Of a stretch of 64,000 nt of DNA, positions 3,023 to 52,070 are shown in pieces. The position numbers and the translations under genes were made by a program. Below the pieces are notes generated by a model, which saw nothing but the letters and a program-made list of their open reading frames with translations, ran no database searches and was not told the origin of the DNA. This stretch comes from a virus. Every line of letters starts with the position of its first letter. The stretch's first letter is position 1. The DNA lies in IMG/VR virus record IMGVR_UViG_3300034782_000041, positions 74,407 to 138,406 of that record; one strand, written 5' to 3'.

Positions 3023-3238
3023 TCACGGGAAGATAGCTTTTTCCAAAGCGAAAAACAGATTTTCCATCGCCATCTTTTCGGACGTAACACGATCCTCACC
3101 CCATCCTTTGCCACAGTAGACGGGCATACCAGGTGCTGCCCGATAGCACATCCGCGTGTAGCACTTGCTGACGCCGTCCTCGGTTTGTTTACCGTTCCGG
3201 CAGAAGGCGTCGAGCTTGAGGTGATTCGTCTTGCGCAT
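3023..3238 (-). CDS. hypothetical Cys-containing small protein
   Basis: 71-aa ORF. Confidence 0.35.
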   Translation of the reverse strand: MRKTNHLKLDAFCRNGKQTEDGVSKCYTRMCYRAAPGMPVYCGKGWGEDRVTSEKMAMENLFFALEKAIFP

Positions 3239-3240
3239 GG

Positions 3241-3642
3241 CTACGCTTGAGCTTTGCGCCTACGGACGAAGTAGATGGTCGCGCCGATGCCTGCTGCTGC
3301 AACGATGGTGATGACGACGGGCCAGAACCACTTGCGTTTGGTCAGGCCTCCACTCTTCTCGACGTCTTCACGCTTCACCGGGCAACCCTTGGAGGAAGTG
3401 AGCTGGCCGTTTGGTGCGACGACGATTGCGCTGACAACTTTGCCGCCGCTGATCTCTTCCCGATCGAATTGGCCCTTCGCATCGGTTTCTTCTTCGTAGC
3501 TCTCCACGGCGTAGTAGAGCTTGTTGTCTTTGATGACCTGCGAGCGGACCTCGTACTTCCCGGTGCCCGTCGTTGGAATGCCCATGTGGGTGATGAAATC
3601 TTGGAGTACCTCAGGTGGGCACGACTCTGACGTAGCTAGCAT
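3241..3642 (-). CDS. hypothetical tail-anchored membrane protein
   Basis: C-terminal WFWPVVITIVAAAGIGATIYFVRRRK TM segment. Confidence 0.5.
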   Translation of the reverse strand: MLATSESCPPEVLQDFITHMGIPTTGTGKYEVRSQVIKDNKLYYAVESYEEETDAKGQFDREEISGGKVVSAIVVAPNGQLTSSKGCPVKREDVEKSGGLTKRKWFWPVVITIVAAAGIGATIYFVRRRKAQA

Positions 3643-3651
3643 GACTCTCTC

Positions 3652-3984
3652 CTATTCAGGCTTTTTTGGTTCGGGAGGCAGCTCCGGGGCGGCTAGCGTT
3701 GGCGCTGGAGCTGAGATAGGGGCCGCGAGTGGCTTGGGTTTGCGCGGACGCGGCGCCCGCGGTTTGCGGCTTAGTTGCCGCACGCCGTTGATGTAGCAAA
3801 CGCCCGTCGCCTCACCCAGCGTTCCAAACCCACGCTCGCCCTTCTTGATGCATACCTGGCGCCCGGTGTTGTCCGGCTTGGAGAGCATCCCCGCCATCTC
3901 CTCGACGATCTTCTTCGGACCGCGCGGAGTGGCCGCGACGCCTGTCTCGTAGACGCCCCAGTACTGGTAGCTCTTTTTCGGCAT
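3652..3984 (-). CDS. hypothetical protein with Pro/Lys-rich tail
   Basis: 110-aa ORF, C-terminal PRAPRPRKPKPLAAP… low complexity. Confidence 0.45.
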   Translation of the reverse strand: MPKKSYQYWGVYETGVAATPRGPKKIVEEMAGMLSKPDNTGRQVCIKKGERGFGTLGEATGVCYINGVRQLSRKPRAPRPRKPKPLAAPISAPAPTLAAPELPPEPKKPE

Positions 3985-4046: not shown

Positions 4047-4388
4047 CTAGGCGAGTCGATCGCGGGCCTGACTGATGATCCAGTCAGCAAGGACGTTGGA
4101 GTACAGGTCCGAGAACCCGTTTCTGCCGGCCGCGCTCTCCTCGATGAACGCCTCAGCCTCACGCTTGCCTTCCTCGCTCGCGGCCCAGCCAATTTCCATG
4201 CTGGCAGCGGTCTGCTGCGCGACTTGTTGAACGCGCTCAACAACCTCCCTGCGAGCTTCCTCGAACTTCGACAGAGCATTGGCGGCTACGGCGGCGGCTT
4301 CCTGGATTCGAGGATCAGCAGCAGCAAACATGGTCGTGCTCCAGCAGCAAATGATTTGGTTGGCAAAGGCGGGATCAGGAGAGTTCAC
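4047..4388 (-). CDS. hypothetical protein
   Basis: 113-aa ORF. Confidence 0.45.
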   Translation of the reverse strand: MNSPDPAFANQIICCWSTTMFAAADPRIQEAAAVAANALSKFEEARREVVERVQQVAQQTAASMEIGWAASEEGKREAEAFIEESAAGRNGFSDLYSNVLADWIISQARDRLA

Positions 4389-4454
4389 GTCTATGCCATA
4401 ACACAGAGGTGTGACAGCCCCACTAGTGTTGTCTGCGTAGGCAAGCTGCGTGTA

Positions 4455-6809
4455 TCAACAACGCGAGAAGCCGCACAGCGCGCACTTGGCGCAGCCCTCG
4501 GCGTAGTACAGCGCGACCTGGTGGCAATCTGGGCAGATGTCGCCGAAGGCAACGTGTTTGTGGCCGTTGCCGTTACCGTTGCCATTCCCATTCCCGTTGC
4601 CGTTTCCATGGCCATTTCCGTGCCCGTGCCCATTGCCGTGCCCGTTGCCGTGGCTATCCCCCTTAGGTGCCCCTGGAGGCTCTACGACGGCCTCTGCTGG
4701 CGAGGCCTGCGTAGACGCTCGGCGGCTTTCGAGCGCGTCAGCGAGCGAACGGAGGGCCTTGGCGACCCCATCTGGGAGTGACAGGACCCGTTCTTGCCCA
4801 AATCCCACCGAATCCCCCCCGCCGATGCCCGAGAGCTGGTCCGCGATGAGCTGGAGGCGCCGCTCGGGGCTGATCGGGCTGTCCAGCCGGAGCACCAGGG
4901 ATCCCAGCCGGGCAATGGCCTCACAGTCGGCGCTGACTGCTGTGCCAGCACGGCTGACAGCGAGCCAGGTTTCAAACGGCCGGTCGTTGATGTCCAACCC
5001 GACCTTGACGCTGAGCTTGCCTGTGGGCGTCTTGATCATCTCGCCGAGGAGATCATATGTACCCGTCGGGATGGGGTGCAGCTCGGGGCGCTTGCCGGTA
5101 CCAAGCGTCAGGGTTTGATTCGCACGGCACTGATCGCGATAGACCGTGATGCCCTTGCAACCTTCTTCCCAGGCGAGCTTGTAGGCGCGTTCTACGTCAG
5201 CAACGGTCGCGTCTTTGGGCATGTTGATCGTTTTGGACACCGCGCACTCGACGTGCTGCTGAAATGCGGCTTGCATCTGCACATGCGCAGCTGGATCGAT
5301 TTCGTTGGCGACCGCGAAGACACGTTGCCATCGTGTGGGCACGTCGGGATCGTCTCGAACGGTGCCGTTCTCTTTGACGCGTTCCATGAGCGCATCACTG
5401 TAGAAGCCTTCCCGCTTCGCGATCTCGACGAAGTCTGGGTTGACGTCTACCATCTCCATGTCGGCTTGCCTGCGCGTCTGGACGATGGCAAACAACGGCT
5501 CTATGCCGCTAGAACATCCCGCGATGATCGAGATGGATCCGGTTGGCGCAATCGTGGTCACCGTCCCGTTGCGACGGTGTTTGCGCCCCGCCGTGAAGTG
5601 TTTTGAACGCTCGAATGCTGGAAACGGTCCACGAAGCGCTGCTAGCTCCTCGCTGGCTTCGATTGCCTGCGTGTTGATGAACTTCATCACGTTGCCGGCG
5701 AGGTCGCGCGCTTGCTGTGACGCGTAGGGAACACCCATCTTGATCAGGAGGTCCGCCCAGCCCATGACGCCGAGGCCAACACGGCGATTTTCCCGTGTGC
5801 GTTCTGCCAACTGAGGAATCGGGTACTGGTTGACGTCGTGGATGTCATCGAGGAAGCGCACAGCGAGCTGCGTCGTAGCTTCGAGTCGCTTGAAGTCCAA
5901 TTCTCGATTTGCTACGTCGTAGAAGTTGACGAGATTGATCGATCCCAGATCGCAAGCGTCATACGGGTGAAGTGGCTGCTCGCCGCATGGATTTGGGGCT
6001 TCAATCGGATCGTCGGCCGTCGTCAACGGATCGAGTTCATTCACACGATCTAGGAAGAAGAGCCCTGGCTCACCTGTGGCATGTGCGTTGCGAACGACCC
6101 GATCGAAAACCATTCGAGCTGCTAGCTCGCTCACAACCTCATTCGTGCGTGGGTTGACCAGCGCGTACATTGCGTCTGCTGCCAACGCGTCCATGAAGGC
6201 GTTCGTGATCCCGACACTGATGTTGAAGTTCTGTAGCTCGCTCGGATCTTTCTTGCAGTCGATGAAGTCGAGAATATCCGGGTGGTCGCAACGCAAGACG
6301 CTTATGTTCGCCCCGCGCCGAACGCCGCTTTGCTTCACGCACTCCGTAACGTTGTTGTATGCCTTCATGAAGCTGATCGGACCACTCGCAAGTCCGGTAG
6401 TGGATCGCACGAAGTCGTCTTTGGGGCGCAGCCGCGAAAAACTGAACCCCGTCCCAGCGCCCTGTTGGTGGCTCAATGCCATGTCGCGCAGTGTTCCGAA
6501 GATGCTCGGCATCGAGTCCTCGATGGGCAACACGATGCAGGCGGACAGGAGCCCGGCGGACAGTCCCGCATTTACCAAGCAGGGCGTGTTTGGCATGAAA
6601 TCTCGGGCGGCCATCATGCGATAGAAGGAGGGCCACACCGTCTCCGGATCGACGCCGTGATTGCGTTCTGCTCGTGCGACATGCTTGGCTACTGCAACGA
6701 AGCGGTCGCGTGGCGTCTCGATGACTTCCCCTTTCTCGTTCCGCTTCAGATACCGTTTCGCTAGGACACTCTCCCCAATAGTGGTCAGATTCGGTTGCAG
6801 CAGTTCCAC
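4455..6809 (-). CDS. nrdJ: ribonucleoside-triphosphate/diphosphate reductase, class II (adenosylcobalamin-dependent), with C-terminal His/Asn/Gly-rich linker and Cys4 zinc ribbon
   Basis: 784-aa product with class II RNR hallmarks (NTPCLVNAG…, PNPCGEQPL, DACDLGSINL, TIAPTGSISIIAG); C-terminus HGNGHGNGHGHGNG(NG)n then CPDCHQV…CAKCALCG. Confidence 0.93.
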   Translation of the reverse strand: MELLQPNLTTIGESVLAKRYLKRNEKGEVIETPRDRFVAVAKHVARAERNHGVDPETVWPSFYRMMAARDFMPNTPCLVNAGLSAGLLSACIVLPIEDSMPSIFGTLRDMALSHQQGAGTGFSFSRLRPKDDFVRSTTGLASGPISFMKAYNNVTECVKQSGVRRGANISVLRCDHPDILDFIDCKKDPSELQNFNISVGITNAFMDALAADAMYALVNPRTNEVVSELAARMVFDRVVRNAHATGEPGLFFLDRVNELDPLTTADDPIEAPNPCGEQPLHPYDACDLGSINLVNFYDVANRELDFKRLEATTQLAVRFLDDIHDVNQYPIPQLAERTRENRRVGLGVMGWADLLIKMGVPYASQQARDLAGNVMKFINTQAIEASEELAALRGPFPAFERSKHFTAGRKHRRNGTVTTIAPTGSISIIAGCSSGIEPLFAIVQTRRQADMEMVDVNPDFVEIAKREGFYSDALMERVKENGTVRDDPDVPTRWQRVFAVANEIDPAAHVQMQAAFQQHVECAVSKTINMPKDATVADVERAYKLAWEEGCKGITVYRDQCRANQTLTLGTGKRPELHPIPTGTYDLLGEMIKTPTGKLSVKVGLDINDRPFETWLAVSRAGTAVSADCEAIARLGSLVLRLDSPISPERRLQLIADQLSGIGGGDSVGFGQERVLSLPDGVAKALRSLADALESRRASTQASPAEAVVEPPGAPKGDSHGNGHGNGHGHGNGHGNGNGNGNGNGNGNGHKHVAFGDICPDCHQVALYYAEGCAKCALCGFSRC

Positions 6810-11925: not shown

Positions 11926-12495
11926 CTAGGCCGCCTTGCGTTTACGTGCGCGTCCTGTACGCAGTTTGTGCTTGAGCTGCGCGTTCTCCGTCTCCAACGC
12001 GCGAATACGTTCTTTGAGTTTGCGAACCAACTCGATGTGGCTCGGGCGCCGTTTGGCGGGCTCGATCTTGTTGAGCACCAGAGACACGGTCGTTGGGCAC
12101 GGTGGTCGATCCTCTTTCCGCATGATCTTGTCCAGCTCACGCAGCGCACGCGTCCGCTTGCGTTGATTGCTCGTGCGATTGTGGATGCGGACGAGCACCG
12201 CGCGGCCGTAGCGTCGGAAGGCTTTCTCCCCGAAGGTATCCAGCACAGCCAACGTGTTGCGGACCTCTCTGGGGTTCTCGTAGAGACGGTGACGAAGTAT
12301 GTCGTGAAAGCTGTACTCAGCCAGCTCGTCGTACGCAGCCTGCGACGCGTACCGTTTGCGATCCGTCCACGGCGCCATGTCTCGCAGCTGCCGTAGAATG
12401 AGTGCGCGTTCCAACGCGACCGTATCGCGGCGTGTTCGCATGCCGTGCCAGGCACTCTCGATACGAGACCAGGACAGTCCACGTAGTTTGATCAT
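11926..12495 (-). CDS. hypothetical basic DNA-binding-like protein with C-terminal coiled coil
   Basis: ELVRKLKERIRALETENAQLKHKLR coiled-coil; function unknown. Confidence 0.45.
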   Translation of the reverse strand: MIKLRGLSWSRIESAWHGMRTRRDTVALERALILRQLRDMAPWTDRKRYASQAAYDELAEYSFHDILRHRLYENPREVRNTLAVLDTFGEKAFRRYGRAVLVRIHNRTSNQRKRTRALRELDKIMRKEDRPPCPTTVSLVLNKIEPAKRRPSHIELVRKLKERIRALETENAQLKHKLRTGRARKRKAA

Positions 12496-12509
12496 CGTAC
12501 GCTCCTTTC

Positions 12510-13124
12510 TCAGTCTTCGTAGAGAATGCCGCGAAGAAGTTCTAGAGCTTCGCTCTCAGAGGTAATAGCACCCATCGCGATTCCATCGAACACCCAGCGT
12601 GCTTTCTGGATGGCAGTCTGCGCGCGCTTCGGTGCCATCCGCGTGGCAGGGTCTGACTTCGACGTTTGCGCTTTGGGTCCGTTGTTCGTGCGCTTGTAGT
12701 TTTCGCAGGCGTCAGCCGAGTAGAGATAACGCCTCGGGTGGCCGTCCATGTTGACGGTAGGAATGCGCCCCTGCTTAGCAGCCCAGTTCACACCGCCTTT
12801 GGTCAGGCCTGTGATCCGCGCAGCTTCAGCCACGTCAACCCACCGGTCTGTGTCAATGGCACCATTCGATCCAGGCTTGCCGGCGGCACCGTTCGATCCA
12901 GGCTTGCGTGACCTCTTGCGTGGCTTCTTGCGTGGCTTTCGCTGAGCGGCGAACTTCGCAACATCAGCTTTGGAGTAAGCGTTGCGGTTCGGCCCGAGCC
13001 GTTTGCTGCGGATACGCTTTGAGCGCCCCAACTTCGCGATGTAGTCAGGGGTTACGTCGAGCAGCTTTGCAGCATCATGAGCTGACAGCCACGCCGCGGT
13101 GGACTTCACGGGAGGAACTGGCAT
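12510..13124 (-). CDS. putative DNA-binding protein with two helix-turn-helix-like segments
   Basis: AAKLLDVTPDYIAKL and VAEAARITGLTKGGVNWAAKQGRI resemble MerR/excisionase-type HTH; basic linker. Confidence 0.5.
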   Translation of the reverse strand: MPVPPVKSTAAWLSAHDAAKLLDVTPDYIAKLGRSKRIRSKRLGPNRNAYSKADVAKFAAQRKPRKKPRKRSRKPGSNGAAGKPGSNGAIDTDRWVDVAEAARITGLTKGGVNWAAKQGRIPTVNMDGHPRRYLYSADACENYKRTNNGPKAQTSKSDPATRMAPKRAQTAIQKARWVFDGIAMGAITSESEALELLRGILYED

Positions 13125-13300
13125 TCGTTCTCGTCTTTCGGTTTGCTCCCCACGCGTCGAGGAGTTGAGAGCAGTAGTACAGGGACGCGTCCTACCTCGT
13201 TTTTACCTAGAATTGATGCTGCGTGCAAGCTTCACGTCGATGATCGCGGACGCGATTTTAGCGTGCCATACCACCATCGTGAAGTACCCAAAAAAACGCG

Positions 13301-13540
13301 CTATGAATTCGTCGATGCAGGACCAAAAAATCCAGCGATCACATCGGCCAGGCTGCGCAGCTCCTGTTCAGCAAACCTGGCGTCTGCTTCGTCAATGCCA
13401 GAAGGAACAATAGCTACAAGGCGGCGACCGCTCGGTAGCTCAATCGCCATGACACTGTAGGTATCCCGAGGCATGTCGAGCCCGAGTGTTTCCCACCGTG
13501 CCTTCTTCACACGCACCACGATCGGATCGTCGCTGTCCAC
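13301..13540 (-). CDS. hypothetical protein
   Basis: 79-aa ORF immediately upstream (in coordinates) of the repeat array. Confidence 0.4.
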   Translation of the reverse strand: MDSDDPIVVRVKKARWETLGLDMPRDTYSVMAIELPSGRRLVAIVPSGIDEADARFAEQELRSLADVIAGFFGPASTNS

Positions 13541-13583
13541 GTCACTAAACTCCTCTTTCTTGTTTTCTGCCGGACCCGGACAC

Positions 13584-14145
13584 GTCTAGCCATCGAGCCA
13601 GCATTCTGGGACCACCTGGTGTTGATCTACGGCGTCTCGATTGGGTAGCCATCGAGCTAGCATTCCGGGACACCCGTCCTCGCGTTCTCTGTCACAGTTA
13701 TCGCACGCAGTGTAGTCTGGTTCGTTGTTGTAGCCGCACTCGACACATTTCCAAATGAGTCCAGCACGGATCATGGCTGATTCAATTGCATCGGATTCAT
13801 CATCTTCGAGCTAGCATTCCGGGTCGCGACTTTGAGACCGCGCGCCAGGTTGTCGCTCGCGTCTCGATTGGGTAGCCATCGAGCTAGCATTCTGGGTTCG
13901 ATCTCGACGCGTCGAAAGACGAGCTAGGCTGTCTCGATTGGGTAGCCTCGATCCCAAATCCGACGTCTCGATTGAGTAGTCATCGAGCTAGCATTCCGGG
14001 TCTTCGTTGGTTGCGGGGCCGAGGTCTCGATTGAATAGTCATCGAGCTAGCATGGTTGTCGTCGCCCTTGGTGCTCAAGTCTCGATTGAATAGCCATCGA
14101 GCTAGCATGATTGTCGTCGCCCTTGGTGCTCAAGTCTCGATTGAA
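13584..14145 (-). CRISPR. degenerate distal block of CRISPR array (truncated and variant copies of the 36-bp repeat; includes a 55-bp tandem duplication)
   Basis: Full copies at 13634-13669, 13861-13896, 13965-14000; truncated copies at 13584-13610, 13808-13823, 13931-13947, 14024-14053, 14079-14108, 14134-14145; intervening segments 23-37 bp plus one 138-bp segment; units 14024-14078 and 14079-14133 are a tandem duplicate. Confidence 0.55.
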
Positions 14146-14185
14146 AAGGGATGCTCCCCTGACCGACAAGGAAGCATTCAAGCTG

Positions 14186-14518
14186 CTACATGCCAGTCGC
14201 CTCGACGACCTTCTTGATGATCTTTTCGAGTTTGGCGTACTTCTTCGTGAAGGCGGCTTCGTACCCGGAATGGTAGATACCGACGTCCGGCGTCAGGTAC
14301 GCCTGTAGCACGCTTTTGAGTACGATCTCGGTGTTCGGATTGGCGTACTGCAACTCGTAAATAGCCTCCCGAGCCACATTGATCACCACCTCCGCCTTTT
14401 CCCGCTCATATGGTTGTAGGAGGTCTTCCAGAGTCTCGATCAATCGGTCGGCGGCAGACACCAACGTTTCACGGACCTGTGGATCCGTTCTTTTCTTCGG
14501 TCTCGGTTTCATTCCCAT
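14186..14518 (-). CDS. hypothetical 110-aa protein encoded inside the CRISPR array (between the two repeat blocks)
   Basis: ORF with GGAGGA RBS 6 nt upstream of ATG (minus strand …acggaggactgaaATG); flanked on both sides by array repeats. Confidence 0.5.
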   Translation of the reverse strand: MGMKPRPKKRTDPQVRETLVSAADRLIETLEDLLQPYEREKAEVVINVAREAIYELQYANPNTEIVLKSVLQAYLTPDVGIYHSGYEAAFTKKYAKLEKIIKKVVEATGM

Positions 14519-14550
14519 TTCAGTCCTCCGTGTCTACATCCTGGCGTGGC

Positions 14551-14951
14551 GTCTTGATTGAATAGCCATCGAGCTAGCATTCCGGGGGGCCGGCCACGGA
14601 AAAACACCGCTGGCCCCGTTTTGTAGTCTCGATTGGGTAGCCATCGAGCTAGCATTCCGGGTCTGGGGCGCGAACGCCTTCGGGCTCGGCTCGATACGGT
14701 CTCGATTGAGTAGCCATCGAGCTAGCATTCCGGGGAGCACCCCGAGGAGCGAACTGGCTTCCGCTACGCGTCTCGATTGAGTAGCCATCGAGCTAGCATT
14801 TCGGGTGGCAGAAAGCTTTGGCCGCGGCAATTGCACGCGAGCTGTCTCGATTGAGTAGTCATCGAGCTGGCATTCCGGGGCGGCTGCGCCAGTGGTTTGA
14901 AACGCACACCCGACTGTCTCGATTGAGTAGCCATCGAGCTAGCATTCCGGG
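14551..14951 (-). CRISPR. CRISPR array, six 36-bp direct repeats (consensus plus-strand GTCTCGATTGAGTAGCCATCGAGCTAGCATTCCGGG) with five unique 35-39 bp spacers
   Basis: Repeats at 14551, 14626, 14699, 14770, 14844, 14916; spacers 39/37/35/38/36 bp; each repeat contains inverted repeat CTCGAT…ATCGAG (6-bp stem, 9-nt loop); variation among copies is confined to the loop. Confidence 0.8.
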
Positions 14952-16522
14952 GGCACCTCGTTTTTCTTGTGCCGTTTCGCGAACCTGGAGGTCGTTTTTC
15001 GAGCGGTAGGTTTTTTCCATTTGCCGGCTTGGTAGAGGGCCCACATGTTTCGGGTGCTTATGTCGTCGCAGTCTCGTTGCGTACCACACCCCTCGCAACG
15101 AAGCATGCGTTGTCCGTTCACGGGAGTGATTGTGCCACAATCGGGGCAACGCGCACTCGTGTGCTTCGCTTCTACGATCCGCATTCCATCGGCGCCAAAC
15201 ACTTCCCGTAGCACCTCCACTGTTTCTCCTGGTGCCGCATGTTGTCCTTGCCGTTGAGCCTTCTGAGGCAGCCCGTGTTCCTCCTTGATCTTCTTGTGCC
15301 CTGTATTCTTGACGATGACAGCCGCGTATTGACAGCGTAGCTCACGCACCCATTCACGCAGCGCTGCGCGACGTCCGGTTCGGCTACGCCGCCAGCAACC
15401 GCACTCATACCGCCAGAGATGCATTTCGCGTGCAACCCACGCGTCTTGATCCGCGGTGAGTACTCCTAGACTACGTAGTCTTCGTACAGCCTTTTGGCAG
15501 GATTTCGTCTTACCGACTACAGGCCAGCACGCCCGTACTTCGTTGAGGCGCTTGTCACGGTGTGAGTGGATCTTCTCCGCACGGTCAGCGCGTGCCGTCC
15601 AACTGACTGGCATGCGTAGCTCACTCACGTGACCGGCCGCATCACGCGCGTAGCCCAATCGCCAGGAGCCGTCAGGCATCTTGCGCCAGCTGACGTCTAC
15701 CGCAACGACGCCTTCCTCGGCCGCGTCCGTCCTTGGGTCAGCATCCTTGCAAGTGAACGCGACCGACCAAACCTGCTGATCGGCATTGTAACGCCGCCGC
15801 ACATGGACATGTGTGATTTGTCCAGACAGCTCGCGGTGCTTTTCTATGCGGATCGGGGTGCAGAAAATGGGTGTAGCCCCATTGCTGCCGATCCTAATTT
15901 CTACCGTGTGCCGTCCAAGTCCGTTACGTGTACGTCTTCCTGTCCGTGCGTCTGGCGCTTTGTGAGTCTGTACGTACCGATGAGGATCTCTTCCGGGTTG
16001 AATTTGGACGGCCGCGACGTCTCCTTTGCGCCACGACCGGAATTTCACCGGGCGGAGCAGAGACGTGTGTTGCCAGGCTGCCGAGAAGGCCTGTTCGATC
16101 ACGTTGTAGGTTCCCCAGTAGAGTCCTTTCGCCGCCCATGTAGTTCGTAATGGACGAACGTCGAGTAGCGGTATAGCACGGGTAGCTGCCCACACTGCAT
16201 TCCAGTGCGCGCGGCAAGCCGCACACTTACAGTTGTCGTGCTCTGCCGGGTGCGCCTCGCGGTGCTTTTCGCACTCAGCGCAGTCGCAGTCGTACTTCTC
16301 GTGGGGAGGCGACGTCTTCGCCCATGCATCTTGGCACTTCTCGCACTGACATCTACCTCGGTGCGGTGGTGGTGGCGGAGATTCGCCGCCCCATCCGATT
16401 TGGCGCCGCTTGTTCTCCGCTTCAACGAGCGCGTTGTAGTACTGACGGCCTAGCCTCATCTGCCTGAGCAAGTTCGGATCTTGGCTAGGGCGGGCTCCAT
16501 ACTTGTAAACGCGTGCTGGCAT
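14939..16522 (-). CDS. cas12: TnpB/Cas12-family RuvC nuclease-like protein, candidate single-effector of a type V CRISPR-Cas system
   Basis: N-terminus VYKYGARPSQDPNLLRQMRLGRQYYNAL matches the TnpB/Cas12 WED start; GVVAVDVSW (RuvC-I-like); GMRIVEAKHTSARCPDCG…RCEGCGTQRDCDDISTRNM (zinc finger plus RuvC-III RD motif); probable start 16522 with AAGGAG RBS; 3' end overlaps the first array repeat. Confidence 0.8.
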   Translation of the reverse strand: MPARVYKYGARPSQDPNLLRQMRLGRQYYNALVEAENKRRQIGWGGESPPPPPHRGRCQCEKCQDAWAKTSPPHEKYDCDCAECEKHREAHPAEHDNCKCAACRAHWNAVWAATRAIPLLDVRPLRTTWAAKGLYWGTYNVIEQAFSAAWQHTSLLRPVKFRSWRKGDVAAVQIQPGRDPHRYVQTHKAPDARTGRRTRNGLGRHTVEIRIGSNGATPIFCTPIRIEKHRELSGQITHVHVRRRYNADQQVWSVAFTCKDADPRTDAAEEGVVAVDVSWRKMPDGSWRLGYARDAAGHVSELRMPVSWTARADRAEKIHSHRDKRLNEVRACWPVVGKTKSCQKAVRRLRSLGVLTADQDAWVAREMHLWRYECGCWRRSRTGRRAALREWVRELRCQYAAVIVKNTGHKKIKEEHGLPQKAQRQGQHAAPGETVEVLREVFGADGMRIVEAKHTSARCPDCGTITPVNGQRMLRCEGCGTQRDCDDISTRNMWALYQAGKWKKPTARKTTSRFAKRHKKNEVPPEC

Positions 16523-16556
16523 ACATGCTCCTTTGCTTGGCTCCTCGGAGCCCCAT

Positions 16557-16886
16557 TCAACCAACGTTGCAAGCAGCTAGAGCTGCAATGATCTTCTCCG
16601 ACATGCCTTGTAGGCCTTTACCGTATTCGCGGATTCCACGCACCGTGAGTAGAATATCGCGGAGTTGATCCTGGTCATCGCTGACACGCTGAATGAGGTC
16701 AGCTACCAGGTCGAGAAGGCCAGCTTGCTCTTCTGGCGACAGCGGTTGCAGGATGCCCTCACGAAGCTGTGTGGCCACGATACGGGCCATCTCAGGGCGC
16801 ATTGTCGAGAGGGCTGCCGCAGCACCGCCAGGAACCGTGTATTCGTGTGCGGGATCATCTGTCATCAGCGTTTTCCTCCTCCTCAT
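16557..16886 (-). CDS. hypothetical protein
   Basis: 109-aa ORF directly upstream of the cas12-like gene; no Cas1/Cas2 features. Confidence 0.45.
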   Translation of the reverse strand: MRRRKTLMTDDPAHEYTVPGGAAAALSTMRPEMARIVATQLREGILQPLSPEEQAGLLDLVADLIQRVSDDQDQLRDILLTVRGIREYGKGLQGMSEKIIAALAACNVG

Positions 16887-16910
16887 CGATAGCGTCTTCG
16901 CTATCTCTCC

Positions 16911-17735
16911 TCAAGTCAGGTTGGACGTTTCCGACGCTGATTGAACGATCTCCACTGCGTTGGCCTCGCTCAGATCGAATTCGTCCTTGAGCTTCTTGAT
17001 CAAGCCGGCACGGAACAACGCAGTACGTTCGACGTTCGCCTCCCTGTACTTACCGATGACCTGCAACACAGGCGCCCAGTCTTGGATGAGACCGTCCAGC
17101 GCTTGCGTAACACGGTCAGCGGACGCGATTTTGCGCAGCTCGGCAACGTTGTCACAGACATCGTTGATCACGTCAGCGATTTGTTTTGGCGCGTTGGCGT
17201 CGAGTACGCTGTGGACGATGGCAGTACTGGCCAGCTTTCCTATGCTCGGTACCTCGGCGCTGCTCTGCGCAGCTCCTGCACTGTATATGTTGCGGATACG
17301 TTTGAGCCGATCAATACGGGCCGCGAGATCGCTGAGCCCTGTAGAGGCTGCATCTGCGGTACCAGCTTCAGCTTCAGCTTCAGCTTCAGCTTCAGCTTCA
17401 GCTTCAGCTTCAGCTTCATCTGTGTCATCCTCGTCCGTAATCTCACGAACCGCGAGCATCACGTCACCAAAACGAACCGTGTCGCCGACTTTGACGGCTG
17501 CTTTGTTGATCTGCTTCTCGTTGATGAACGTACCTTGCACGCTACCCAGATCGACTAGGTGGACAATGCCTCCAGGCTCGCACTCGAACACCGCGTGCAT
17601 CCGACTGACTGAAGGATGGTTGAGCTTCAACCCCGAGCGTTTCATTTTTCCAATCTTGATCACACTGCCGCGGCAGGTGTGCACCTCACCTTGCGTGCCG
17701 TCACTGTTGATCTCAGCCAATACGATTGCCCTCAT
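16911..17735 (-). CDS. FHA (forkhead-associated) domain protein with (EA)7 repeat
   Basis: N-terminal GSVIKIG…SRMHAVFE…LVDLGSVQGTFINEKQI…GDTVRFG fits the FHA fold; (GCTTCA)n encodes EAEAEAEAEAEAEA. Confidence 0.7.
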   Translation of the reverse strand: MRAIVLAEINSDGTQGEVHTCRGSVIKIGKMKRSGLKLNHPSVSRMHAVFECEPGGIVHLVDLGSVQGTFINEKQINKAAVKVGDTVRFGDVMLAVREITDEDDTDEAEAEAEAEAEAEAEAEAGTADAASTGLSDLAARIDRLKRIRNIYSAGAAQSSAEVPSIGKLASTAIVHSVLDANAPKQIADVINDVCDNVAELRKIASADRVTQALDGLIQDWAPVLQVIGKYREANVERTALFRAGLIKKLKDEFDLSEANAVEIVQSASETSNLT

Positions 17736-21235: not shown

Positions 21236-21790
21236 TTAGACTGCAAGTAGGTTCATGATCACGTGGTTTGGGGCGTGGCCGATTCGCAGCGCTGCCAGCA
21301 ACGCATCCTGGCGATCTCGGTCCGAGACGGCCAACCGCAGCATTCGTCGGCGCTCGTCGATGGGTGCCGGCTGCTGTGCGATTCGCTCCGCCCATGCCAG
21401 CACCCATTGCTCGGGGCAGCCGACGTAGTGATAGTCAGCCGGATACTCGTCAGGGTCGTCCGGGTACACACCGCGGCTGACCGCATGAGTGCATGCTACG
21501 CGTGCCAACCCGAGCTGTCGCGGTAGCTGCCAGCGAGACTCCTGCCGAACGTAGCCAGCTGCAAGCAGTGTCTCAGCACGTGCCTCGATACGTAGACGCT
21601 CGAACGCGTAATGGAGTACCTTGTCGCCGCGTGCAACATGCTCTTCGAGATGTGTGATCATCTCAGCGGCGGTCGCCGCACAGAAATCATCGAAATCTGC
21701 TACCAGGCCGCAGTTACAACATTCGAGCCTGTTATCAAGCGTGCCGAACACGTACACGTCAGAGTGCGCTCCCCAGCGACAGTAGCTCAT
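21236..21790 (-). CDS. hypothetical protein
   Basis: 184-aa ORF; its start lies in copy 1 of a triplicated 28-bp unit. Confidence 0.5.
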   Translation of the reverse strand: MSYCRWGAHSDVYVFGTLDNRLECCNCGLVADFDDFCAATAAEMITHLEEHVARGDKVLHYAFERLRIEARAETLLAAGYVRQESRWQLPRQLGLARVACTHAVSRGVYPDDPDEYPADYHYVGCPEQWVLAWAERIAQQPAPIDERRRMLRLAVSDRDRQDALLAALRIGHAPNHVIMNLLAV

Positions 21791-21865
21791 CGGCCTTTCC
21801 TGCGCTTCCGTAGCTCATCGGCCTTTCCTGCGCTTCCGTAGCTCATCGGCCTTTCCTGCGCTTCC
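21782..21865. repeat. perfect 3 x 28-bp tandem repeat (GTAGCTCATCGGCCTTTCCTGCGCTTCC) spanning a gene junction
   Basis: Three identical units at 21782-21809, 21810-21837, 21838-21865; each carries RBS-like AGGAAAGG plus an ATGA start/stop overlap. Confidence 0.85.
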
Positions 21866-28261: not shown

Positions 28262-29155
28262 TCACGGAGCTACAGTAGCAACGTACTGCCAGTCGTTGCG
28301 GCACCCAGGTGGCGTGCCGGGCGGCTGCCCTGCGGGAAAACAAATCGTCCAGCCGATCACACGGGACTCTCCTACGAGCTGTGTGTCCGAGACTTGTTCG
28401 GCTGTGTGTGCAGCAAATCGGATCGTGGATGGAAGCCACGGACACGCGCCATTGGAAAACGGCCGAAGGTACGCTTCCTCGACGTCCCACTCGAACTCCC
28501 ATCCAACAAATAGCTCCGCGTCGAAGTACTTGCTGCTGCTACTACCTGGCTTCGAGAAGACCATATCGATATTCTCGTAACCGTGGTCGATAACGGTCAG
28601 CTCCGTATAGTCACGGAAGTCGAAAATTCCGTTCGCCGGAATCGGGTCTCCCGCGCAGTTGCCAGTGTAAGTCCAGACCACGTCGAAGTGCTCGGGGAGT
28701 GGATTCCAGGGCTCTGGCGGCGGTACGTACGCGTCTGGCAGCGGTACGTACGCGTCTGACGGCGGTACTGCATCTGGAAGCGCAATAGCGTCCGCCGGAG
28801 GAACATACGCATCTGGTGAAGCATATGCATCCGGTGAAGCATACGCATCCGGTGAAGCATACGCATCCGGTAGTGGAGCAGCATCCGGTGGCAGTACTGC
28901 ATCCGGCGGCACGTCGGCATCCGGCGACAACACAGCATCCACTGCTGCGTCTACGATGAATAGTGCGTCTGACAATACGATAGTCGCGTCAACATCCGCG
29001 GTCGCGTCAACATCCGCGTCGTCTGTACTGTCCGCGTCGTCTGTGCCAGCGTCTACAAATGCCGCGTCCACATCCGTAGCAAGTGTGTCCGTACTGCACG
29101 CACAGACAGTGCAAATCGTACTACAGATAGCAAACCGCATATCAAACCTCCGCAT
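28262..29155 (-). CDS. secreted/lipoprotein-like repeat protein with (PDAYAS)n repeats
   Basis: N-terminal hydrophobic signal with Cys cluster; 18-bp repeats at ~28790-28880; Asp/Ala-rich N-region. Confidence 0.5.
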   Translation of the reverse strand: MRRFDMRFAICSTICTVCACSTDTLATDVDAAFVDAGTDDADSTDDADVDATADVDATIVLSDALFIVDAAVDAVLSPDADVPPDAVLPPDAAPLPDAYASPDAYASPDAYASPDAYVPPADAIALPDAVPPSDAYVPLPDAYVPPPEPWNPLPEHFDVVWTYTGNCAGDPIPANGIFDFRDYTELTVIDHGYENIDMVFSKPGSSSSKYFDAELFVGWEFEWDVEEAYLRPFSNGACPWLPSTIRFAAHTAEQVSDTQLVGESRVIGWTICFPAGQPPGTPPGCRNDWQYVATVAP

Positions 29156-33546: not shown

Positions 33547-33804
33547 ATGGCGTCACACCACATCAACGTGCTTCTTGACGACGAGCTACACACGTACCTG
33601 GTACAGCATGCGCAGACCCGCGGCATATCCCTGTCTGCTGCGCTCCGCGATCTACTACGCCACGGTCTCGGCATCGTCGCGTCAGGCGAGGACGCAGGAT
33701 GGCGAGAGGGCTACACCGCGGCGTGGGCAGCGGTTCGCCGCGCTGCGCTGGACGCCGTTGAGCAAGTCTCACCCGTCTATCCTGACGATACATTTCACTC
33801 GTAA
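33547..33804 (+). CDS. ribbon-helix-helix (CopG/Arc-like) DNA-binding protein, apparently leaderless
   Basis: INVLLDDELHTYLVQHAQTRGISLSAALRDLL beta-strand plus two helices; ATG directly after a promoter-like TTGAAC…TAGCAT with no SD; paralogue at 62471. Confidence 0.6.
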   Translation: MASHHINVLLDDELHTYLVQHAQTRGISLSAALRDLLRHGLGIVASGEDAGWREGYTAAWAAVRRAALDAVEQVSPVYPDDTFHS

Positions 33805-34898
33805 TCAGCTCGACGCGGCGGCCAAGTTTTTGGCTGCGTGTCATTTGATGCGGCGGCGTTTGCTTCGCCATTCGATGGCTCGACAAGATCGCGAAGCACT
33901 TCGCCGGGTGCTTGTGCTGGCAGTTTGCTCGCTTTGTCGTAGCGCTCTGTTGTCGCCTTTGAGGCATGTAGCATCGCCGCCTGACGATCTTCGATTGAGA
34001 CGCCACGCTGACCTGTAATCGTCGCGAACGAACGCCGAATCGCATGAGGTGTTGCGCGTGTCAGGTCGAGCCCTGCGCGTTCCGCTGATCGCTTCACGGC
34101 GTTCCTGACTGTCGTGGGGCCAACGGCCACGTCGGCGCCTTCGCGTCGCGGGAATATTGGCCCTGCGTCGATACGATTGGCTTGGCACCATTCCGCCAGC
34201 TCGTGCGACAACCAAACTGGAAGTGGCACGATGGCATCCTTGCCACCTTTCGCGTGCACTTGCGCAGCGAAGCCACCAGGGGTGTCGAGGAGCGCATCAC
34301 GACGAAGGCGTGCGATCTCCGCTCGACGCCAACCCGTACCTGCTAGCGTGGCGCAGATAACCCAATCGCGACGTTCTACCCACGGCGCGGTTGACGGCGG
34401 CCGTATTAGGAGACGGCGCATTTCGTCTTCTGCGAGCCAGGGCGTCTTCGGCTCGTGATCCACTTTGATGTTTCGGACCTCGCGCGCGGGGTTTGCGTCT
34501 AGCACCCCAGGCACCTCCGAGAACGCAACTACCAGCGCGGCGTAGGTCGAACGGATCACGGCCAGTGCGCGTGAGCGCGTCGTCTTCGCCCTGCCAGCGT
34601 CCTGCATGCTCACGAGATAGCGCAGAACGTGCAGGGGCAGCGCGTGCAGTGGATGGACCCCTTCGGCGGAGAGCCAAGCCACCCAGCGGCGCCAGTCGTC
34701 ACGGTAGCCGCGTACGCTCTCTGGGGAGTCCAGGGTGCGCCGGAACGCCAGGAGTGCCTCCTCTAGGCGGTCTTGCAGATCGGGGCTCAGAGCAGCGTCT
34801 GAGGGCCTAATTTGCCAGGGTGGGCGCGGGATCAGGTCGGTTCCCTCGGACATGATCTGAGAGCTTGCCCGACAACCGGTATTATCGTCAACTGGCAA
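33795..34898 (-). CDS. int: tyrosine recombinase / phage integrase
   Basis: C-terminal catalytic motifs …RATPHAIRRSFAT… and …LHASKATTERYDK (R…HxxR…Y); N-terminal SAM-like core-binding region. Confidence 0.85.
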   Translation of the reverse strand: MPVDDNTGCRASSQIMSEGTDLIPRPPWQIRPSDAALSPDLQDRLEEALLAFRRTLDSPESVRGYRDDWRRWVAWLSAEGVHPLHALPLHVLRYLVSMQDAGRAKTTRSRALAVIRSTYAALVVAFSEVPGVLDANPAREVRNIKVDHEPKTPWLAEDEMRRLLIRPPSTAPWVERRDWVICATLAGTGWRRAEIARLRRDALLDTPGGFAAQVHAKGGKDAIVPLPVWLSHELAEWCQANRIDAGPIFPRREGADVAVGPTTVRNAVKRSAERAGLDLTRATPHAIRRSFATITGQRGVSIEDRQAAMLHASKATTERYDKASKLPAQAPGEVLRDLVEPSNGEANAAASNDTQPKTWPPRRADYE

Positions 34899-51128: not shown

Positions 51129-51998
51129 TCAGTCATCCTTCGCGCAACGAAATCCGACGTCGTTGCTGGCTACGCCGGGCTCACGTGACGTGCGTGCCGC
51201 AGTCCGTAGATACGGAGAGGAGGAGGTCGCCGAGCCGCCGCGCACGACGCGCTCTGTACCGGTCACGGGGCCCTTCGGATCGGCATCCGGGGATTCTTCG
51301 TAGTAGGTCGCTGAGTACCAATCGTGGACCCACTCAGCGGCATTCCCCGCCATGTCGTACGCGCCGTACGGACTCACACCATCTGGGTACTGACCGACAG
51401 CGACAGCGTGATCTACCGGCGATTGACAGGAGGTGTAGTTGGCGAAGTCACAGCTGATTGCCCCTGAATCCCAAGGATAGCGTCGTGCGTCTGTTCCTCT
51501 CGCTGCCTTCTCCCACTCTGCTTCTGTGGGTAAACGTTTACCGCGCCATTCACAGTATGTCTGCGCTTGCGCCCACGTAACGCCCCGGACTGGATTCTCT
51601 GGCCCATCCGAGATCAACGGTATCGCACAAACACTGGCCGCTGCACACTCTCCATACGCGGCCTCGGTGACTTCAGTAGCATCGATCAGAAAATCCCCCA
51701 GTGTGACCTCGTGTATAGGCAACTCGTTCGGGTCCGCACACGGGTCGCTGGTGACGTTGCAGCCCATCCAGAAAACGCCTGCGGGAACAGCCACCATGGC
51801 AGTCAGGTCCGCAGCATCTGCCACGGTGCTGTCGATGTTGTCTGCATCTGCCGGCGAACTGTCCACGGCGGGAAGTGCGTCCGCTTCGATCGTTGCGTCG
51901 GCGTGTCGTGCATCCACAGGGTCAGCATCATAATTCGTTGATACTGTTCCACAGGCCGAGGTCGCTACCAATACCAATCCAAAGGTTCGATGACTCAT
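51129..51998 (-). CDS. secreted formylglycine-generating-enzyme (FGE/SUMF1)-domain protein
   Basis: Signal MSHRTFGLVLVATSACG; …VTWAQAQTYCEWRGKRLPTEAEWEKAARG…YDMAGNAAEWV…RVVRGGSA match the FGE-sulfatase fold signature. Confidence 0.65.
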   Translation of the reverse strand: MSHRTFGLVLVATSACGTVSTNYDADPVDARHADATIEADALPAVDSSPADADNIDSTVADAADLTAMVAVPAGVFWMGCNVTSDPCADPNELPIHEVTLGDFLIDATEVTEAAYGECAAASVCAIPLISDGPENPVRGVTWAQAQTYCEWRGKRLPTEAEWEKAARGTDARRYPWDSGAISCDFANYTSCQSPVDHAVAVGQYPDGVSPYGAYDMAGNAAEWVHDWYSATYYEESPDADPKGPVTGTERVVRGGSATSSSPYLRTAARTSREPGVASNDVGFRCAKDD

Positions 51999-52070
51999 CT
52001 TGTGCTCCTTTGTTCCCATAGCCCACAAGCAGTCACAGTGCCTGCCTGTGGGTCATACCACTCTACACGG

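Follow-up and report, generated by a model that had tools for sequence, protein, structure and literature searches.

Introduction

Type V-M CRISPR (clustered regularly interspaced short palindromic repeat) systems, which rely on the single effector Cas12m, are found mainly on plasmids and in some prophages (PMC11656645). Cas12m uses a single CRISPR RNA (crRNA) of ~50 nucleotides (nt), with ~30 nt of repeat and ~20 nt of guide, without a trans-activating crRNA (tracrRNA); it cuts its own precursor (pre-crRNA) within the repeat and silences its targets by binding that depends on a protospacer-adjacent motif, with no cleavage (PMC11013384). A phage Cas12m was first reported in September 2026, in myxophage MV-1 and beside an ordinary array (bioRxiv 10.64898/2026.09.14.751636). 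Here we analyze a 64-kb stretch of viral DNA (64,000 nt, positions 74,407 to 138,406 of IMG/VR record IMGVR_UViG_3300034782_000041; 58% guanine plus cytosine, GC), referred to below as the window. It carries a cas12m-like gene, a CRISPR array in two blocks and, between the blocks, an open reading frame (ORF) of 110 codons. The locus is read on the minus strand.

The locus resembles the described type V-M loci (MmCas12m, GoCas12m and Cas12m2) in its compact single effector, its RuvC site that the alignment suggests to be non-canonical, its 36-nt repeat with a 3' stem, its adjoining array and the lack of nearby adaptation genes. By analogy, the same mode of action would be expected: self-processing of pre-crRNA, and binding of DNA without cleavage. 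The effector here is shorter, however (~480-530 versus ~600 amino acids, aa), and its RuvC residues are D-K-D, whereas the described variants have D-E-D, H-D-D or N-D-D. The locus differs further in that the effector's stop codon lies inside repeat 1, and in that the array is a mosaic with short-spacer blocks and an embedded ORF. As in MV-1, a phage-borne Cas12m and an array occur with no tracrRNA and no protospacer matches, and no cas1, cas2 or cas4 was found near the locus. A further parallel is that the array of one relative sits on a contig assigned to a 'Deltaproteobacteria' metagenome-assembled genome (MAG). In contrast, the MV-1 Cas12m has 610 aa, an intact D-E-D and an 8-spacer array for which no embedded gene or scrambled block is reported.

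Viruses also carry mini-arrays, single repeat units and RNA anti-CRISPRs (Racr); the known viral mini-arrays and Racr mimic the CRISPR repeats of the host and come without an effector. Our locus and its relatives have in common with them viral repeats with few, short or no spacers, and repeats of another type are present in two relatives (L019 and L012). However, the element studied here encodes the matching effector, and the distal repeats in the window are of its own type. CRISPR arrays can also be interrupted by insertion sequence (IS) elements, or by Tn7-like transposons that target repeats (PMC11837452). Here, too, an array has coding DNA between its two parts, but the homologous 'cassette' consists of a ribosome-binding site (RBS) and an ORF only. 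Our search of the open-access literature turned up no description of a protein gene within a Cas12m array.

Results

Anatomy of the locus

The 36-nt repeat (GTCTCGATTGAGTAGCCATCGAGCTAGCATTCCGGG, plus strand) occurs in nine copies at ≤3 mismatches, all within 13634-14951 (chance expectation 0), and its 28-nt core occurs in 11 copies, against 0 expected, and nowhere else in the window. A first-pass annotation, made from the sequence alone, had placed a CRISPR array beside an effector gene; this is borne out, the array being genuine and the effector of type V. On the minus strand the order is: effector ORF, regular repeat block, 32 nt containing GGAGGA, 110-codon ORF, 41-nt 3' flank, scrambled repeat block, 79-codon ORF, and a gene with HTH_17 domains.

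The effector-proximal block (14551-14951) is regular, with six full 36-nt repeats, R1 to R6 (14916-14951, 14844-14879, 14770-14805, 14699-14734, 14626-14661 and 14551-14586), and five spacers of 36, 38, 35, 37 and 39 nt. A G-to-A change in R6 (ATCAAG instead of ATCGAG) breaks the stem, and the canonical hairpin is not predicted on folding. Terminal repeats of arrays are often degenerate, as R6 is here.

The distal block (13587-14144) is scrambled, with five hairpin-bearing copies and four shorter fragments. Three of the five are full length (13965-14000, 13861-13896 and 13634-13669), and two lack the first 6 nt (14079-14108 and 14024-14053, both repeat positions 7-36); the fragments are 14134-14144 (repeat positions 26-36), 13931-13947 (20-36), 13806-13823 (1-18) and 13587-13610 (1-24). 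From 14144 to 13587, the intervals measure 25, 25, 23, 17, 34, 37, 136 and 23 nt. The upper end of the block is a tandem array of 2.2 copies of a 55-bp unit (14024-14145), made of the 30-nt 3' part of the repeat and a 25-nt 'spacer' (TTGAGCACCAAGGGCGACGACAAYC); its full copies (14024-14078 and 14079-14133), described earlier as exact duplicates, are identical at 53 of 55 positions. The longest interval, given earlier as a 138-bp spacer, measures 136 bp and contains the start of a zinc-ribbon-like ORF of 62 codons (13586-13774, minus strand) that is doubtful as a gene. The N-terminal 33 aa of this ORF are zinc-ribbon-like (CxxC...CxxC; Pfam Zn_ribbon_RanBP at 6.2e-6, just under the cut-off) and its C-terminal half would be read through a repeat; it has no RBS and no homologue, and is not called on the JGI contigs. 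Another small zinc-ribbon-like ORF (CxxC…CxxC) lies inside or directly after the array of a related locus (L015, ~4340-4674).

One explanation offered by the first-pass annotation was a single array split by an insertion that inactivated its older half. This is too simple, since the last repeat of the proximal block, the stem-broken R6, is degenerate in the manner typical of terminal repeats; a description as two blocks that meet at a gene suits the locus better than one of a single array cut in two. The simple split is undercut as well by related loci: L006 has a mid-array short-spacer block with no gene, followed by a spacer common to the window, and scrambled short-spacer blocks, some of foreign type, recur across the effector family. 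The array also departs from a canonical adaptive array in having no leader, truncated repeats, intervals of 17-136 nt, and a spacer (spacer 2) that is common to a divergent locus.

The effector and the repeat hairpin

The effector gene (14939-16522, minus strand) encodes 527 aa from an ATG, and its ORF reaches a TTG at 16564 (541 aa). The protein matches the PADLOC models Cas12u1 (1.3e-35) and Cas12f (4.2e-33); a single-sequence search of the PDB gave no match. A profile built from the window protein and 22 homologues (23 proteins, effectors from phage-like contigs) matches Cas12m in the PDB (23vw_A, 1.7e-37) over profile positions 7-466 of 492, and also Cas12m2 (8hio/8hhl, 2e-21), with TnpB and Cas12f far weaker. 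Homology to Cas12m thus extends along most of the effector, which places it in type V-M. The alignment places its RuvC residues at D276, K405 and D484-D486: the RuvC-I and RuvC-III Asp are kept, and the RuvC-II Glu is replaced by a Lys that is invariant in 23 of 23 effectors (D-K-D; the K405 codon lies at ~15308-15310 of the window). Judged from its sequence, the window Cas12m probably does not cut target DNA.

Written in the sense of the effector strand, the repeat is CCCGGAATGCTAG-CTCGAT-GGCTACTCA-ATCGAG-AC, with a hairpin, CTCGAT(9 nt)ATCGAG, at the 3' end beside the spacer; this is the type V arrangement. Among 22 repeat variants of the family, double-sided changes occur in five of the six stem pairs (25 cells; 0 of 500 shuffles), and sliding the stem partner by one column abolishes pairing. 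The variants were chosen for having the motif, so that the pairing figure of 99% arises partly by construction; the covariation does not. Single-sided stem changes correspond to G-U on the effector strand, and this wobble, together with the covariation, indicates that crRNA is read from the effector strand.

No anti-repeat was found above chance in the window, and likewise no tracrRNA-like element; Rfam gave no match across 12400-17000. A 13-mer in the 110-aa ORF (14263-14276), conserved in the related locus L005, was considered as an anti-repeat or tracrRNA-like element and discarded as chance, 47 of 2000 codon shuffles and 8 of 186 control windows scoring as well.

The 110-codon open reading frame

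The embedded ORF (14186-14518, minus strand) starts with ATG, and its predicted product is an orphan with a basic N-terminus and an all-helical prediction. The insert between the repeat blocks measures 406 bp; in it the ATG follows R6 at a distance of 32 nt and has a GGAGGA RBS (14524-14529) 5 nt upstream. Coordinates and sequence agree with the first-pass annotation, which had placed a minus-strand ORF with this RBS between two repeat blocks. Gene callers predict the ORF on JGI and ENA contigs, and its GC at codon positions 1/2/3 (0.57/0.33/0.70) is like that of neighboring genes. Its single relative, P0002 on contig L005, has 82% aa identity, with many conservative replacements (R/K, E/D, T/S, I/V) and no indel in 333 nt despite rearranged flanks. 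Homology to L005 begins exactly 17 nt upstream of the ATG; these 17 nt (AGACACGGAGGACTGAA) are identical in the two loci, and the genes downstream are unrelated.

Profile searches, suggested earlier as a check on this protein, found no family: Pfam, PHROGs, PADLOC and NCBIfam gave noise only and no DNA-binding domain, and thus no support for the earlier suggestion of a regulator that uses repeat-like operators. An exhaustive phmmer search of 1.8 billion representatives returned P0002 only, plus repetitive coiled-coil noise, and a word-indexed search returned 2 clusters. Foldseek found nothing in the PDB at E < 0.1, only generic four-helix bundles that we take as uninformative. None of these four profile collections, nor Foldseek, showed similarity to a known anti-CRISPR (Acr) family.

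In the 3' flank of the ORF (14146-14185) a stem-loop precedes CUUUUC; the flank also contains 26 nt, at the gene's 3' end, whose orientation in the window is inverted relative to L005. We considered the stem-loop as a terminator and rejected it: hairpin and CUUUUC are no better than shuffles (z = -0.85) and are uncalled by a terminator scan. A transposon or IS insertion was rejected as well, on the size and content of the insert: its 406 bp carry nothing but the 110-aa ORF, and neither a transposase nor inverted terminal repeats nor a target-site duplication is present.

Is the ORF a gene? It could instead be a chance frame in a non-coding interval of 406 bp, such as an old array's leader or the debris of recombination. 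The ratio of nonsynonymous to synonymous substitution rates (dN/dS) of ~0.86 without a third-position excess, the orphan status and the low confidence of the structural model would all fit this, and long spurious ORFs are common in sequence of 58% GC. Nevertheless, L005 keeps the strong, well-spaced RBS but otherwise differs in its 5' flank, the GC pattern over the three codon positions is coding-like, no indel has entered 333 nt that lie between scrambled flanks, and amino-acid changes are mostly conservative in an ORF called on both JGI and ENA contigs. A non-coding interval therefore seems to us improbable, and the ORF is probably a real, fast-evolving orphan gene.

Relatives of the locus

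Three contigs, L001, L003 and L004, match the window exactly. In L002, a 99.3%-identical strain from another sample, the proximal block has spacers 4 and 5 only, with gene and distal block unchanged, so that three effector-proximal repeat-spacer units are the sole difference. The variation is thus confined to effector-proximal units, in agreement with the earlier claim that the effector end is the young end. It does not look like fresh acquisition, because R2 and R3 differ from R1 and because spacer 2 is also present in L006. Spacer 2 and the variant repeat downstream of it (CCCGAAATG…) are common to the window and L006, whose effectors are 62% identical. L006 has the same repeat, in seven regular copies, then eight units at 9-46-nt intervals, and then the shared spacer; there is no 110-aa gene in the 950 nt of array on its contig.

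In L005, which carries the 82% homologue, the repeats upstream of the gene have spacers of 18, 18 and 20 nt, and downstream of it are repeats or fragments at intervals of 15, 11, 30 and 8 nt, followed by unrelated small ORFs. The only relative of the 110-aa gene is thus also flanked on both sides by the same repeats: the gene-between-repeats layout is conserved in L005 while the surroundings differ. The case that the first-pass annotation had named as refuting, related elements with the gene but no repeats beside it, did not arise, and the outcome favors the annotation.

The wider family (effectors 36-76% identical; the locus comparison was made without P0015) shows how variable these arrays are. 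At one extreme, L009 has an ordinary array of 19 repeats, with two duplicated spacers; at the other, L007 has only short intervals (24, 31, 17, 11 and 15 nt), followed by an 85-aa gene. L010 has regular units and then short units, with stems that vary by copy yet pair. In L012, seven regular repeats are followed by two with wholly different but paired stems (4909-4987), and in L019 and L020 seven cognate repeats (stem CCCACC/GGTGGG) are followed by at least 10 of another type (CTCGAY/RTCGAG) with 8-36-nt spacers (L019 2363-3450). In both L019 and L012 the cognate type comes first, then types typical of other clade members; two repeat types in one array suggest either exchange of arrays between phages or decoy repeats. 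Genes occur among or after the repeats elsewhere as well: in L013 and L014 a repeat at the effector stop is followed by an NT5C gene, a 119-aa gene and four repeats with 14-16-nt spacers, and in L016 to L018 a single repeat is followed by a helix-turn-helix (HTH) gene. In this clade it is common for arrays to be mosaics whose distal blocks have short spacers or foreign-type repeats, and protein genes lie between repeats in at least two independent occurrences; most clade members are without the 110-aa gene.

Solitary, hairpin-intact repeats lie upstream of the effector in L013 (3889-3920, ~30-80 nt upstream) and L010 (3537-3568, ~1.5 kb upstream). They are possible cis-regulatory sites; the window has no solitary repeat upstream of its effector. 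L015 (JAUYJC010000630.1, the 'Deltaproteobacteria' MAG) carries at 3119-3926 a truncated Cas12m homologue, of which residues ~5-41 and 312-500 align, followed by five regular repeats. This CRISPR copy appears to be decaying, and the MAG label hints at the host lineage.

The distal blocks recur in the window, L005, L006, L007, L010, L012, L013 and L019, as would be expected if their short-spacer or variant units were functional RNAs: either crRNA-like regulators with truncated guides, serving an effector that only binds, or decoys soaking up the Cas12m of rivals in the manner of RNA anti-CRISPRs, with the 110-aa gene lying inside a working RNA operon. Distal copies keep their hairpin through compensatory changes, in L019 and L012 the element's own repeats are followed by types known from other clade members, and the window has 2-3 occurrences of the 25-nt guide TTGAGCACC.... 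Units with spacers of 17-25 nt would also fit the mature Cas12m crRNA, with its ~30-nt handle and ~20-nt guide (PMC11013384). However, many intervals are too short for guides (in L005 and L006, 8-11 nt), half of the hairpin is missing from several copies, and none of the spacers, whatever their length, has a match in the window or in the related loci. The compensatory differences can come from donor arrays, and the distal repeats of the window are of the phage's own type, so that decoys would titrate its own effector. We regard functional RNAs as a possible explanation, though not a likely one.

The effector's neighbors in relatives include a product of the Pfam Tad3 family (L009 4510-4947), a WGR/PARP-domain protein (L007 2102-3544) and the NT5C nucleotidase (L013 5511-6068). 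The effector seems to lie in variable accessory gene islands, possibly of counter-defense.

Such neighbors, among them the Tad3-family product, the PARP-like protein and NT5C, would suit a 110-aa protein that is a dedicated CRISPR partner: an anti-CRISPR against the Cas12m of rivals, a protein that inhibits or modulates the effector of the phage itself, or an accessory, with its site selected for coupled expression. Both copies of the gene are embedded in arrays of this repeat despite differing surroundings, their fast evolution with many conservative replacements is typical of conflict proteins, and the succession of small ORFs and an HTH protein (12510-13124) resembles acr-aca operons. Yet there are two observations only, from closely related arrays; the protein has no similarity to known families, the gene is absent in most clade members, and the other embedded genes (NT5C and the 119-aa ORF) are unrelated to it. 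A dedicated partner is, in our judgment, unlikely.

Transcription and adaptation genes

In the window the TAG stop of the effector lies inside repeat 1, the last codons and the stop coinciding with the first 13 nt of R1 (…PPEC*, CCC CCG GAA TGC TAG; 14939-14951). The stop is in or directly beside repeat 1 in the window, L006-L013, L016 and L019, and the last 3-4 residues are repeat-encoded. Across the clade the gap from stop to repeat 1 is a few bases at most, which is too small for a leader. No sigma-70-like promoter or intrinsic terminator was called on the minus strand across 13300-17100. Since there is no leader and neither signal was called, we infer that cas12m is co-transcribed with the array, the 110-aa ORF and the distal block, the array most likely forming a 3' extension of the mRNA. 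Cas12m cutting at repeat 1 would then cleave the 3' end of its own mRNA, and autoregulation would be possible. No cas1, cas2 or cas4 was found among the near-locus ORFs and ~30 larger ORFs of the window.

Spacer targets

The 14 spacers and pseudo-spacers have no match in the window at ≤25% mismatches, and 10-nt seed matches occur in chance number, none of them near the gene. The spacers are also without a match in 20 related loci, in IMG/VR (exact scans) and in INPHARED; PLSDB gave one chance-level match.

These results bear on a guard module like CreTA or CrePA, in which degenerate repeats would give rise to a crRNA-like RNA that represses a small, toxic protein, so that the element would depend on its Cas12m as on an addiction. 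CrePA provides a precedent (bioRxiv 10.1101/2024.01.05.574328). As in CreTA/CrePA, a small gene with degenerate repeat units lies near an array, and here degenerate repeats flank it beside an effector that is, by its sequence, probably of the binding-only type; the host, in contrast, is a phage-like element with a type V-M system. However, the defining partial match between pseudo-spacer and toxin promoter was looked for and not found: no spacer or pseudo-spacer has complementarity beyond chance to the upstream region of the gene or nearby, and the 32 nt between R6 and the ATG leave no room for a separate promoter. We consider a guard module very improbable.

Genomic context

Beyond the distal block, an ORF of 79 aa (13301-13540, minus strand) starts 46 nt past the last repeat fragment. 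It is preceded by GAGGAG, is called on L001 and L002, and matches no family of Pfam, PHROGs, PADLOC or NCBIfam. The gene that follows it, oriented alike (12510-13124, minus strand), encodes a 204-aa protein with two HTH_17 domains (Pfam HTH_17 8.1e-11, in two stretches; PHROG excisionase/transcriptional regulator 6.1e-11).

All but one of the window's ORFs of ≥300 aa lie on a single strand. Among the PHROG matches are a ribonucleotide reductase, an integrase, an HNH endonuclease and an ATPase; the majority of the remaining ORFs are without a family, and the window yielded no structural genes. It appears to be a section of a large phage or of some comparable element. In IMG/VR neither the repeat nor a relative of the effector was found, and the nucleotides of the window have no match in INPHARED or PLSDB. 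A tyrosine integrase-like protein (33795-34898, minus strand; PHROG integrase ~1e-27) suggests a temperate or integrative lifestyle.

A 274-aa FHA-domain protein (16911-17735, minus strand; Pfam 3.5e-15) contains a (Glu-Ala)n run encoded by a perfect CAGCTT x9 at 17363-17418. Its homologue lies downstream of the effector in L007 and upstream in the window, indicating that the cas12m-array module has moved relative to the backbone. Elsewhere in the window are a formylglycine-generating-enzyme-like protein (51129-52028, minus strand; FGE-sulfatase 9e-51), a perfect tandem repeat of 28 bp x 3 (GTAGCTCATCGGCCTTTCCTGCGCTTCC) at 21782-21865, and several imperfect tandem repeats of 18-36 bp at 28713-29018.

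Discussion

The anatomy of the locus, the family of its effector, the gene-between-repeats layout and the mosaic arrays of its relatives are direct observations. To account for them we lean, with modest confidence, toward the following reading: this is the tail of a type V-M locus on a phage-like element, its arrays recombine between repeats, and the 110-aa gene is trapped, co-transcribed cargo. Repeats of related phages that co-infect a cell would recombine, so that arrays could be reshaped without nearby adaptation genes; recombination would join blocks, delete and duplicate units, and occasionally trap a gene cassette. Recombination of this kind would account for blocks of mixed history, truncated repeats, short intervals, the 55-bp duplication, the small inversion, a spacer common to divergent phages, and a trapped RBS-plus-ORF cassette. 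The trapped gene would evolve fast and may act in conflict between phage and host or between phages; an accessory or anti-defense cargo gene, one of the suggestions of the first-pass annotation, is thus possible. It would be expressed by read-through of the cas12m/pre-crRNA transcript, and Cas12m cleavage at the intact flanking repeats may trim this transcript, giving the gene a separate mRNA.

Several points weigh against this reading. Between the two copies of the gene dN/dS is 0.86, with 9/17/11 differences at codon positions 1/2/3; without a third-position excess, the pair gives no sign of purifying selection. AlphaFold2, run on the two-sequence alignment, predicts four helices at a predicted local distance difference test (pLDDT) score of 57.5. 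The gene is present in two lineages only, the second of them a 1.2-kb contig. A promoter not of the sigma-70 type could lie inside the array, and the check for adaptation genes covered the near-locus ORFs and ~30 others in an element of at least 150 kb. Finally, short-spacer blocks with intact hairpins recur in many relatives, which fits a selected function as well as neutral scrambling.

Several of these elements can be joined in one account, which we think unlikely as a whole: repeats would serve as punctuation and as gene-capture sites in a leaderless cas12m operon, and the distal short-spacer or foreign-type blocks would be decoys or regulators in warfare between phages. The punctuation part could explain the repeated gene insertions, namely the 110-aa gene (two lineages), the NT5C and 119-aa genes (L013/L014) and the HTH gene (L016-18), and cleavage and binding of the flanking repeats by Cas12m could control the captured genes.

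The locus and its relatives make up a compact Cas12m subgroup with a RuvC-II Lys, whose arrays start within the effector stop, appear to evolve as recombining mosaics and not by ordered acquisition, and can hold protein genes. If expression of the 110-aa gene does depend on Cas12m processing, this would be a natural case in which a Cas protein matures an mRNA out of the transcript of its own array, a design that engineers use with Cas12a. Should the 110-aa protein modulate Cas12m, a family under development for base and epigenome editing would gain a new tool. If neither is true, the locus illustrates how arrays decay and are shuffled when no adaptation genes are present.

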